Assembly (NCBI RefSeq): GCF_053078305.1
Contig: NZ_CP166879.1
Direction: 5' to 3' (one strand)
Length of the DNA stretch: 64,000 nt
The notes beneath the pieces were generated by a model, which saw nothing but the letters and a program-made list of their open reading frames with translations, was not told the origin of the DNA and searched no databases. Every line of letters begins with the position of its first letter. Position 1 is the first letter of the stretch. Positions 20,877-32,335 of this stretch are shown piece after piece. Both the position numbers and the translations under genes were made by a program.

Positions 20877-21069
20877 GCTATGAATGCCATCACCATTTTC
20901 CCCTCGATTATAAAACTTGAGTTATTCAGTAGTCTCCCCTCTTGCAACTCACACCCAAAACTGCCTAACGAAAAGTTATTAATTTTCAATCATATTGCTA
21001 TCAGGATTTACATTTTTTCGCTGTGCTAGAAAGGGCGCATTTATGTTAGCTCGTTCAGGGAAGGTAAGC

Positions 21070-29070
<8,001 letters not shown>

Positions 29071-29354
29071 TTTTTCGCTATATTTTCTTACAGAGTGCTC
29101 CATTCGGGGCGCTCTGCTTTTACATTCGTTTGCTATCAAACGCTCCATTAATATACCTGCATTTTCCCATACCTCCCTGTTAGTCTGAAGATAGTCGAGC
29201 CTCCTTTCGTTTTTAATAAACGCTTTCACACATGGTATAACCACCTGTTCCACGCCAGCGGGAAACAAAGTATATGATCTATTTTGATAACGATCATTGT
29301 TGCTATGTAGTCAAATTACGTTAATGTTTAGCTAAGTACATCAAGGAGGAAGAT

Positions 29355-29450
29355 ATGTCAGGACGTACAAACAATATCAGTTCATATTTCAATATTACAA
29401 ATTACATCAGTACCACTCATAATAATGTATGCCTGTTAACGGGGATTTAA
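29355..29450 (+). CDS. Candidate small ORF (31 aa, Asn/Ser/Thr-rich) with a perfect Shine-Dalgarno
   Basis: AAGGAGG 7 nt upstream of ATG; no homology recognised. Confidence 0.25.
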   Translation: MSGRTNNISSYFNITNYISTTHNNVCLLTGI

Positions 29451-29651
29451 GTTCAGGTTGTCTTATTTATGATGGTGAAATACATTACAATGTTTTAGTT
29501 CCACCAGATTCGCGTTCGGTGTGACTATGATCGTATCCGGTGAGTACAGCTTTGATCCAAAGGCTGGTTTTCTGTGATGATTGACCAGCCTCAGAGTATT
29601 GATGACACCACCGTTCATAACAGATCGGCATTACTTTGCATACGTACTGCC

Positions 29652-30704
29652 TCAAATTCTCGCCAAAACACTTTTTAATGCCTTTGCGAATTCATCCAGA
29701 CTTATATTGTCAATTTTTTTCCCAACGACGACTGACTCCGAAACATCGGCCATTGCGGGCCATCGCGTTTTGTAATCAGCATAAATTGCAACAACGGGAG
29801 TATTATAGGCACTTGCCATATGTAATATTGAGGTGTCAGGAGTTATTGCGATATAAGCATCTTTTATGATTGCTGCTGAACGTTTAATCGAGGGTGATAA
29901 GGATAAACGGTAGACATTATTATAACAATCCACTAATACCCTGGCTTTATCTTCCCCTTTTGGTCCATGAACGATCACTATTGGTATATCTGTTTCACTT
30001 TGAATTTTTTCTATTAGATTTTCTGCAATCGATAGTGAAAATGTACGTTCCTGCGAGCTACCTTCTAAATTAAGCGCAATGTAAGATCCTAACGATCGCA
30101 TTTCCTCGCGCACCTCATCGAGTACATCCTCACTTAGTGGCAATTCATATATTGGCCTGACTGCTGGAAAACCCGCCTCACGCATCATAAATGCCCATGT
30201 CATGGGTACGGGAGCCCGGAGATTCTGATCCATCCGGGACGCGTTCTTACACACAGGGGAATAGCACTTCATGGTTAAACCAACAACCTGAAAATTCGTT
30301 TTTGCTTTCAACTTACTGATAAATAACATCGTTTTCAGGTTCTTTTTACGCATCGCCTCTATACAAAGATCCGGCGTACCGTATTGCTGTGTTATGTTCT
30401 TCGCTAAATCTTTTATTTCTTTTAATGTTGCGTGATCCTGCATAGTCATTGTGACTAATGTTAATTTAGTCTGTTCAAGTTTGAGCGCATTAAAGACTTC
30501 TAAATTAATTGTCGACGTAACAATTAGTAGATGCTTAATTTTATGCAATTCAAGCGCCCGAATAACAGGAAAGATGGCCATAGCATCGCCAATCTGATCG
30601 GGAATATGGATGACAACAAAATCTGTTTTTTCAATATTGAAATTATAAGCTTTATAATCGTAGTAACTAAATGCAATATGTCTCAACAATGATGCTAAAA
30701 ACAT
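29652..30704 (-). CDS. yeeL: Glycosyltransferase family 9 (heptosyltransferase-like) YeeL, intact
   Basis: 350-aa uninterrupted ORF. Confidence 0.7.
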   Translation of the reverse strand: MFLASLLRHIAFSYYDYKAYNFNIEKTDFVVIHIPDQIGDAMAIFPVIRALELHKIKHLLIVTSTINLEVFNALKLEQTKLTLVTMTMQDHATLKEIKDLAKNITQQYGTPDLCIEAMRKKNLKTMLFISKLKAKTNFQVVGLTMKCYSPVCKNASRMDQNLRAPVPMTWAFMMREAGFPAVRPIYELPLSEDVLDEVREEMRSLGSYIALNLEGSSQERTFSLSIAENLIEKIQSETDIPIVIVHGPKGEDKARVLVDCYNNVYRLSLSPSIKRSAAIIKDAYIAITPDTSILHMASAYNTPVVAIYADYKTRWPAMADVSESVVVGKKIDNISLDEFAKALKSVLARI

Positions 30705-31018: not shown

Positions 31019-32335
31019 ATGGACTCCACGCTCATCTCCACCCGTCCCGATGAAGGGACGCTTTCGTTAAGTCGCGCCCGACGAGCTGCGTTAGGCAGTT
31101 TCGCTGGTGCCGTCGTCGACTGGTATGATTTTTTACTCTATGGCATCACCGCCGCACTGGTGTTTAATCGCGAGTTTTTCCCGCAAGTAAGCCCGGCGAT
31201 GGGAACGCTCGCCGCATTTGCTACCTTTGGCGTCGGATTCCTTTTCCGTCCGCTCGGCGGTGTCATTTTCGGTCACTTTGGCGACCGACTGGGACGTAAG
31301 CGCATGTTAATGCTGACCGTCTGGATGATGGGTATCGCGACAGCCTTGATTGGTATTCTTCCTTCATTCTCGACCATTGGGTGGTGGGCACCTATTTTAC
31401 TGGTGACGCTGCGTGCCATTCAGGGATTTGCCGTCGGCGGCGAATGGGGAGGCGCGGCGTTGCTTTCCGTTGAAAGTGCACCAAAAAATAAAAAAGCCTT
31501 TTACAGTAGCGGTGTACAAGTTGGCTACGGTGTAGGTTTACTGCTTTCAACCGGACTGGTTTCATTGATCAGTATGATGACGACTGACGAACAGTTTTTA
31601 AGCTGGGGCTGGCGTATTCCTTTCCTGTTTAGCATCGTACTGGTACTGGGAGCATTGTGGGTGCGCAATGGCATGGAAGAGTCCGCGGAATTTGAACAAC
31701 AGCAACATTATCAAGCTGCCGCGAAAAAACGCATCCCGGTTATCGAAGCTCTGTTACGACATCCCGGTGCTTTCCTGAAGATTATTGCGCTACGACTGTG
31801 CGAGTTGCTGACGATGTACATCGTTACCGCCTTTGCACTTAATTATTCAACCCAGAATATGGGGTTACCGCGCGAACTTTTCCTTAATATTGGTTTGCTG
31901 GTAGGTGGATTAAGCTGCCTGACAATTCCCTGTTTTGCCTGGCTTGCCGATCGTTTTGGTCGCCGCAGGGTTTATATCACAGGTGCGTTAATCGGAACGT
32001 TGAGCGCATTTCCTTTCTTTATGGCGCTTGAAGCACAATCTATTTTCTGGATAGTTTTCTTCTCCATAATGCTGGCAAACATTGCGCATGACATGGTGGT
32101 GTGTGTGCAACAACCGATGTTTACCGAAATGTTTGGTGCCAGTTATCGCTATAGTGGCGCTGGAGTCGGTTATCAGGTTGCCAGTGTGGTTGGTGGTGGA
32201 TTTACACCTTTTATTGCCGCTGCACTCATCACTTACTTTGCCGGGAACTGGCATAGCGTCGCCATTTATTTGCTGGCTGGATGCCTGATTTCCGCAATAA
32301 CCGCTTTGTTGATGAAAGACAATCAACGCGCTTGA
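31019..32335 (+). CDS. shiA: Shikimate transporter ShiA (MFS)
   Basis: 438 aa, multi-TM MFS signature. Confidence 0.85.
   Translation: MDSTLISTRPDEGTLSLSRARRAALGSFAGAVVDWYDFLLYGITAALVFNREFFPQVSPAMGTLAAFATFGVGFLFRPLGGVIFGHFGDRLGRKRMLMLTVWMMGIATALIGILPSFSTIGWWAPILLVTLRAIQGFAVGGEWGGAALLSVESAPKNKKAFYSSGVQVGYGVGLLLSTGLVSLISMMTTDEQFLSWGWRIPFLFSIVLVLGALWVRNGMEESAEFEQQQHYQAAAKKRIPVIEALLRHPGAFLKIIALRLCELLTMYIVTAFALNYSTQNMGLPRELFLNIGLLVGGLSCLTIPCFAWLADRFGRRRVYITGALIGTLSAFPFFMALEAQSIFWIVFFSIMLANIAHDMVVCVQQPMFTEMFGASYRYSGAGVGYQVASVVGGGFTPFIAAALITYFAGNWHSVAIYLLAGCLISAITALLMKDNQRA

Follow-up and report, generated by a model that had tools for sequence, protein, structure and literature searches.

Results

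Genomic setting of the ORF

The 31-codon open reading frame (ORF) considered here occupies part of the 581-bp spacer that separates two convergent genes in the 64,000-nucleotide stretch of DNA that we analyzed (contig NZ_CP166879.1; hereafter, the window). On the plus strand, the spacer is preceded by an 8-kb gene (positions 20995 to 29070) that the list of ORFs and the gene order yeeJ, yeeL, shiA, and amn identify as a divergent allele of yeeJ, encoding an inverse autotransporter adhesin, in agreement with the initial annotation, which had placed the ORF downstream of yeeJ. RefSeq names the product here "Ig-like domain-containing protein," the gene probably starts further downstream than the listed TTG, and its 3' end shares 73% identity with K-12 yeeJ. 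On the other side, a 1053-bp gene on the minus strand (29652 to 30704) encodes an intact yeeL-type family 9 glycosyltransferase of 350 amino acids, beyond which follow shiA, starting at 31019, and then amn. An intact glycosyltransferase ORF is found here and in many strains, and yeeL of K-12 is annotated as a pseudogene. The next gene after the ORF is therefore on the opposite strand, convergent with yeeJ, and no co-oriented gene follows downstream. Gene-length variants of yeeJ have been described (PMC5595812); in the passages of that paper matched by keyword, yeeL is never mentioned and the downstream spacer is absent. Our literature search returned no paper in which a small ORF is tied to yeeJ and yeeL.

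We then looked for signals that could govern transcription of the spacer. Twenty bases past the yeeJ stop codon, a terminator scan and folding both pointed to an intrinsic terminator of yeeJ on the plus strand (29091 to 29116), composed of an 11-bp G+C-rich stem followed by CTTTTACATT, with a folding energy of -19.9 kcal/mol (z = -6.7 versus shuffled sequences). K-12 has a homologous terminator hairpin. A consensus scan found no sigma-70 promoter between this terminator and the ORF, and only by eye could a weak extended -10-like site be made out at 29213 to 29241 (TTAATA, 17 nt, TGgTATAAC). Promoter-like sites were not enriched either, 2 being found against 3.3 expected from shuffled sequences. 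A promoter-like site at 29394 to 29423 lies ahead of a weak plus-strand hairpin at 29547 to 29566, which is situated about 100 nt past the ORF and precedes the T-run GTTTTCTGTG (-9.7 kcal/mol, z = -1.25). We rejected this hairpin as the ORF's own terminator, since it is weak and also persists in genomes without the ORF. The yeeJ locus is reported to be poorly expressed and silenced by H-NS.

Anatomy of the ORF and structure of its surroundings

Direct reading and the ORF list agree on a plus-strand ORF (29355 to 29450) that opens with ATG at 29355 to 29357, continues through 31 sense codons (MSGRTNNISSYFNITNYISTTHNNVCLLTGI), and closes with TAA at 29448 to 29450; on the strength of the allele comparison presented below, we judged it to be a chance ORF. 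It is preceded by the Shine-Dalgarno (SD)-like heptamer AAGGAGG at 29343 to 29349, read directly from the plus strand and separated from the ATG by the pentanucleotide AAGAT. The perfect heptamer, the ATG, and the 31 codons were thus as initially annotated, but the gap, which had been given as 7 nt, is in reality 5 nt, a near-optimal spacing within the usual optimum. The predicted peptide is rich in asparagine, serine, threonine, and isoleucine, as had been noticed before, these four accounting for 19 of the 31 residues (61%), and asparagine alone is encoded by 6 of the 31 codons, including two Asn-Asn pairs. The AT-rich setting noted initially was equally borne out, G+C content being 31% in the ORF and 39% in the spacer versus 49% in the whole window, and the 31 to 35% found around the ORF segment is the minimum of the neighborhood. 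Inspection of the 31-residue sequence revealed no hydrophobic helix, no transmembrane stretch of about 15 to 20 residues, and no long hydrophobic run.

The 161-nt region around the ORF folded less stably than its shuffled counterparts (z = +2.4), which argues against a structured RNA and indicates that, in a transcript of this region, the SD sequence would be accessible. Folding of the ORF region gave no signal of alternative terminator and antiterminator structures overlapping the ORF end. A scan of positions 28500 to 30500 with Rfam 15 returned one chance match, to an archaeal snoRNA model, at 15.3 bits against a gathering threshold of 38 (E = 0.43).

Frequency of comparable configurations

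We asked how often such a combination of an SD sequence, a start codon, and an open frame would be expected in DNA of this composition. Counting both strands, the 64-kb window contains 8 copies of AAGGAGG, about as many as expected at random, and 3 of them are followed by an ATG within 3 to 10 nt. When the window was simulated 300 times with a first-order Markov model, the configuration AAGGAGG, 4 to 9 nt, ATG, and at least 31 codons occurred 0.19 times per 64-kb window, and at least one instance was present in 16% of the simulated windows. The arrangement of SD sequence, ATG, and ORF is thus statistically unremarkable.

The only other orphan case of AAGGAGG followed by ATG in the window lies on the minus strand at 7200 to 7297, where AAGGAGG (7297 to 7291) is followed after 7 nt by the ATG of a 27-codon hydrophobic ORF, MSWPEAFSNVGIAMAVALVVYSICRWG. 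This ORF overlaps or adjoins a prophage gene encoding a DUF551-domain protein, and it could plausibly encode a small membrane protein of the phage.

Distribution of the ORF-bearing segment

We next considered how widely the spacer is shared within the species. When the spacer was compared by megablast with 5426 complete E. coli genomes, 5044 of them gave matches, nearly all confined to the last ~155 bp (29497 to 29651), with only 187 genomes matching over the full length. With a more sensitive search, using positions 29200 to 29500 as the query, the AT-rich, strain-variable segment that bears the ORF (~375 bp, about 29128 to 29500) was detected in 211 of the 5426 genomes (~4%), always on the chromosome and in single copy in nearly all carriers. 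In K-12, ~55 unrelated base pairs replace these ~375 bp, and homology is retained on either side, in the terminator hairpin and the final ~155 bp. The expression strains C41(DE3) and NEBExpress also match only the conserved 3' part of the spacer. No annotated feature underlies the ORF segment in any matching RefSeq genome.

The common part of the spacer (29497 to 29651), which lies 3' of the convergent glycosyltransferase gene's stop codon, is ~92 to 99% identical across the 5044 of 5426 genomes that match it and stands beside hypervariable spacer DNA. This 155-bp stretch could be a 3' untranslated region (3'UTR) or a back-up terminator.

In several carriers of the segment (alleles L001, L005, L009, and L010), RefSeq annotates a frameshift, a truncation, or an internal stop in yeeJ, so that decay of the adhesin gene itself is frequent in this group of lineages.

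Outside E. coli, a degenerate 43-nt DNA pattern that fits every known allele was sought in 100,044 species genomes (16.6 million contigs), a search that requires an exact match to the pattern and that strongly diverged copies would escape; a single contig matched, and no other species was found to carry the sequence. This lone match (JAIJJM010000903.1) is a 1140-bp contig in a Collinsella metagenome-assembled genome with 94.7% identity to the window. Since that identity covers the spacer and the flanking gene ends, the contig is E. coli DNA and an evident binning contaminant. Collections of phages and plasmids contained no match to the segment. We rejected an origin of the segment as a mobile element, given the lack of phage or plasmid matches, its single-copy state in nearly all carriers, and the absence of notable terminal inverted repeats.

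At the protein level, the initial statement that the ORF has no recognized homology still holds. Neither Pfam nor NCBIfam matched the 31-residue peptide or three neighboring ORFs on either strand, and among the 1.84 billion representative proteins searched, only three matched, all of them E. coli alleles of this very locus. Gene finders do call the ORF on occasion, for example as ELG88635.1 ("hypothetical protein"), and such calls are few in public protein collections, where the allelic versions include stop-loss forms of 47 residues.

Allelic variation and decay of the ORF

We then aligned ten allelic versions of the segment, translated each from the aligned start, and counted the genomes carrying particular changes by means of short-query searches. 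The 99 bases extending from the SD sequence to codon 28 (29340 to 29438) were present in 193 genomes, being identical to the window in 114, 95 to 99% identical in 50, and less than 95% identical in 29; about 18 further carrier genomes hold the segment without this stretch. Each element of the ORF proved to have decayed in one lineage or another.

Concerning the start codon, ATG is changed to ATA in 26 genomes, identified by an exact match to an ATA query and belonging mainly to O145:H28, indicating that the start codon has been lost in a whole pathogenic lineage. The ~24 genomes that show 95 to 99% identity without the ATA change are represented by two sequences that were read, both of which keep the SD sequence and the ATG. 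The diverged allele L005 has lost its start codon independently and has AGAAAGG in place of the SD sequence. The latter varies further among the alleles, which show AAGAAGG, ATGGAGG, or AGAAAGG at this position; those alleles with 80 to 90% identity that were read have either AAGAAGG or AGAAAGG. In two of them (L002 and L006, ~88% identity), AAGAAGG is combined with a change of the TAA stop codon to AAA, extending the frame to 33 amino acids, and stop-loss versions of 33 and 47 amino acids occur altogether. The frame itself is disrupted in a contig (L013) with an 11-nt deletion inside the ORF, which shifts the frame after codon 25; this contig is the source of one of the three protein matches mentioned above.

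A further change is a 66-bp deletion in two alleles (L007 and L008) that removes the SD sequence, the ATG, and the first 15 codons. A repeat search on the plus strand (29334 to 29409) showed that its ends coincide exactly with two 10-nt direct repeats, AAGTACATCA (29334 to 29343) and AATTACATCA (29400 to 29409), which lie 66 bp apart; repeat-bounded deletions of this kind bear the mark of slippage or illegitimate recombination. The same two alleles harbor a second deletion, of ~67 bp, further downstream (alignment columns 400 to 466). The spacer thus evolves largely by small deletions.

Reading-frame conservation across E. coli, the check put forward in the initial annotation, consequently failed: the segment is absent from ~96% of the genomes, and the start codon, SD sequence, frame, and stop codon have each been lost in some of the carriers.

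Tests for selection on the reading frame

We finally determined whether the substitutions bear the mark of a coding sequence. Unique substitutions among the alleles were spread over codon positions 1, 2, and 3 in a ratio of 8:6:8. They comprised 17 nonsynonymous (or start- or stop-altering) and 5 synonymous changes, which are small counts, and since nonsynonymous sites in the ORF outnumber synonymous ones by a factor of 3.65 (73 versus 20), these numbers correspond to the neutral expectation. Pairwise pN/pS values against the diverged alleles ranged from 0.4 to 0.8, based on only 3 to 4 synonymous changes. Identity to these alleles was 87.5 to 88.5% in the ORF versus 90 to 94% in the flanking spacer, showing that the ORF is conserved no better than its flanks. 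None of the eight full-length variants sampled from complete genomes had an interrupted frame; this is uninformative, however, because a stop codon results from only 4.3% of single substitutions and 12 random substitutions would leave the frame open with a probability of 0.59.

Overall, we sought the hallmarks of a small-protein gene, namely, conservation of the start codon and ribosome binding site, purifying selection, and presence throughout the species or homologues in related genera, and found none of them.

Discussion

Of the three options raised in the initial annotation, a small protein, a leader peptide, or a coincidence, the last is the one that the data favor. We conclude with high confidence that the ORF is a chance reading frame in neutrally evolving, indel-prone, AT-rich spacer DNA carried by a minority of E. 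coli genomes. A G-rich heptamer would happen to equal the SD consensus 5 nt ahead of an ATG, the AT-rich sequence beyond it would happen to be free of stop codons for 31 codons, and the segment would evolve neutrally through substitutions and small deletions. Given a strong terminator upstream and no consensus promoter, transcription of the ORF is probably low or absent, and stray transcripts, if any, would expose an unstructured SD site to "pervasive translation," yielding a peptide that would have no fitness effect. The anatomy of the ORF, its distribution, and the decay by mutation of each of its elements are demonstrated; from these we infer that it has no function and little or no expression. 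Some observations count against this verdict: the open frame in the eight variants, which is a weak point; the pN/pS values of 0.4 to 0.8; the -10-like site; and the occasional calls by gene finders. Furthermore, the perfect 7-mer SD, its near-optimal spacing, and the unstructured context make translation likely if the region is transcribed.

We considered whether the segment might instead be functional as a noncoding sequence to which the ORF is incidental, for example, as an AT-rich stretch bound by H-NS, as a small RNA, or as an element in the 3'UTR of yeeJ or the glycosyltransferase gene. The low G+C content of 31 to 35%, a local minimum, would suit such a role, as would the promoter-like site at 29394 to 29423 ahead of the hairpin at 29547 to 29566 and the reported silencing of the yeeJ locus by H-NS. 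Against it, no Rfam family was matched, the region folds less stably than shuffled sequences, promoter-like sites do not exceed the number found in shuffled sequences (2 versus 3.3), and the segment is missing from 96% of the genomes and riddled with indels where it is present. We therefore regard a noncoding function as very unlikely, and it would in any case be compatible with, rather than exclusive of, a chance origin of the ORF.

A second alternative is that the ORF is a young, lineage-restricted small-protein gene, or proto-gene, whose SD sequence drives synthesis of a 31-residue polar peptide and which is intact in ~2.5% of E. coli genomes and lost elsewhere. The perfect SD sequence, the ATG, and the unstructured initiation region are what such a gene would need; 114 genomes carry the exact sequence and ~24 more are 95 to 99% identical without the ATA change, the two that were read keeping both SD and ATG; no full-length variant taken from a complete genome interrupts the frame; and pN/pS is below 1 against the diverged alleles. 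However, each element of the ORF has been lost in some lineage, substitutions show no codon-position bias and a nonsynonymous-to-synonymous ratio equal to the neutral one, and the flanks are at least as well conserved as the ORF. In addition, the genome and protein searches gave no homologue outside this locus, a strong terminator and no consensus promoter precede the ORF, and neither a hydrophobic helix nor any other recognizable feature is present in the peptide. We consequently hold a proto-gene to be very unlikely, and its more specific form, a de novo proto-gene whose 31-residue peptide is expressed only in carrier lineages (e.g., ST167-type or O157:H16 Santai), to be highly improbable.

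Validated E. coli small proteins of up to 50 amino acids, such as MgrB, AcrZ, and MgtS, many of which are single transmembrane helices, offer a further comparison. The ORF resembles them in its size class, strong SD sequence, and ATG start, but unlike them it specifies a polar peptide that has no hydrophobic helix and is not conserved even within the species, its start, frame, and stop all being variable. A type I toxin or small membrane protein was rejected, the peptide being 61% asparagine, serine, threonine, and isoleucine and having no long hydrophobic run.

The last alternative, a leader peptide or regulatory upstream ORF that attenuates a downstream gene, has next to no probability left. 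Like the leader peptides of amino acid operons, e.g., hisL, thrL, and pheL, the ORF is short, has a strong SD sequence, and is enriched in one amino acid (asparagine, 6 of 31), and a hairpin with a T-run follows ~100 nt downstream. Unlike in these systems, no co-oriented operon follows, no terminator/antiterminator pair spans the ORF end, there being no signal of alternative structures, and no tandem regulatory codons exist beyond the two Asn-Asn pairs. Asparagine richness is also to be expected of an AT-rich sequence, and the hairpin is weak and is kept in ~4800 genomes without the ORF, indicating that the two are uncoupled. Decisively, the gene layout excludes such a role, since the next gene is convergent and shiA (31019) lies beyond this 1053-bp antisense gene.

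If the chance ORF were translated at all, its closest counterparts would be the nonfunctional, "pervasively translated" short ORFs revealed by Ribo-RET and Ribo-Api in E. coli. Of the 365 novel short ORFs described in that work, the majority lack Pfam domains and homologues in other genera and show no evidence of purifying selection (Stringer et al., bioRxiv 10.1101/2021.07.02.450978). Our ORF is similarly short and intergenic, has a usable initiation site, and shows no Pfam domain, homologues, or purifying selection. It differs in that ribosome occupancy was measured for those ORFs, while this one is known from its sequence, lies behind a strong terminator, and is strain specific, the Ribo-RET and Ribo-Api studies having used K-12 and BL21 strains, which lack the segment.

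Were the proto-gene to be real after all, it would represent a strain-specific case of de novo gene birth, of modest interest rather than a breakthrough, and the O145:H28 allele with its ATG-to-ATA change would provide a natural knock-out for comparison. As a chance ORF, it illustrates that coincidence alone will place a consensus SD sequence ahead of an ATG and 31 open codons about once in every five 64-kb windows, and that such cases are quickly settled by comparison within the species. Taken together, these data support the treatment of this spacer in RefSeq, where it is left unannotated.
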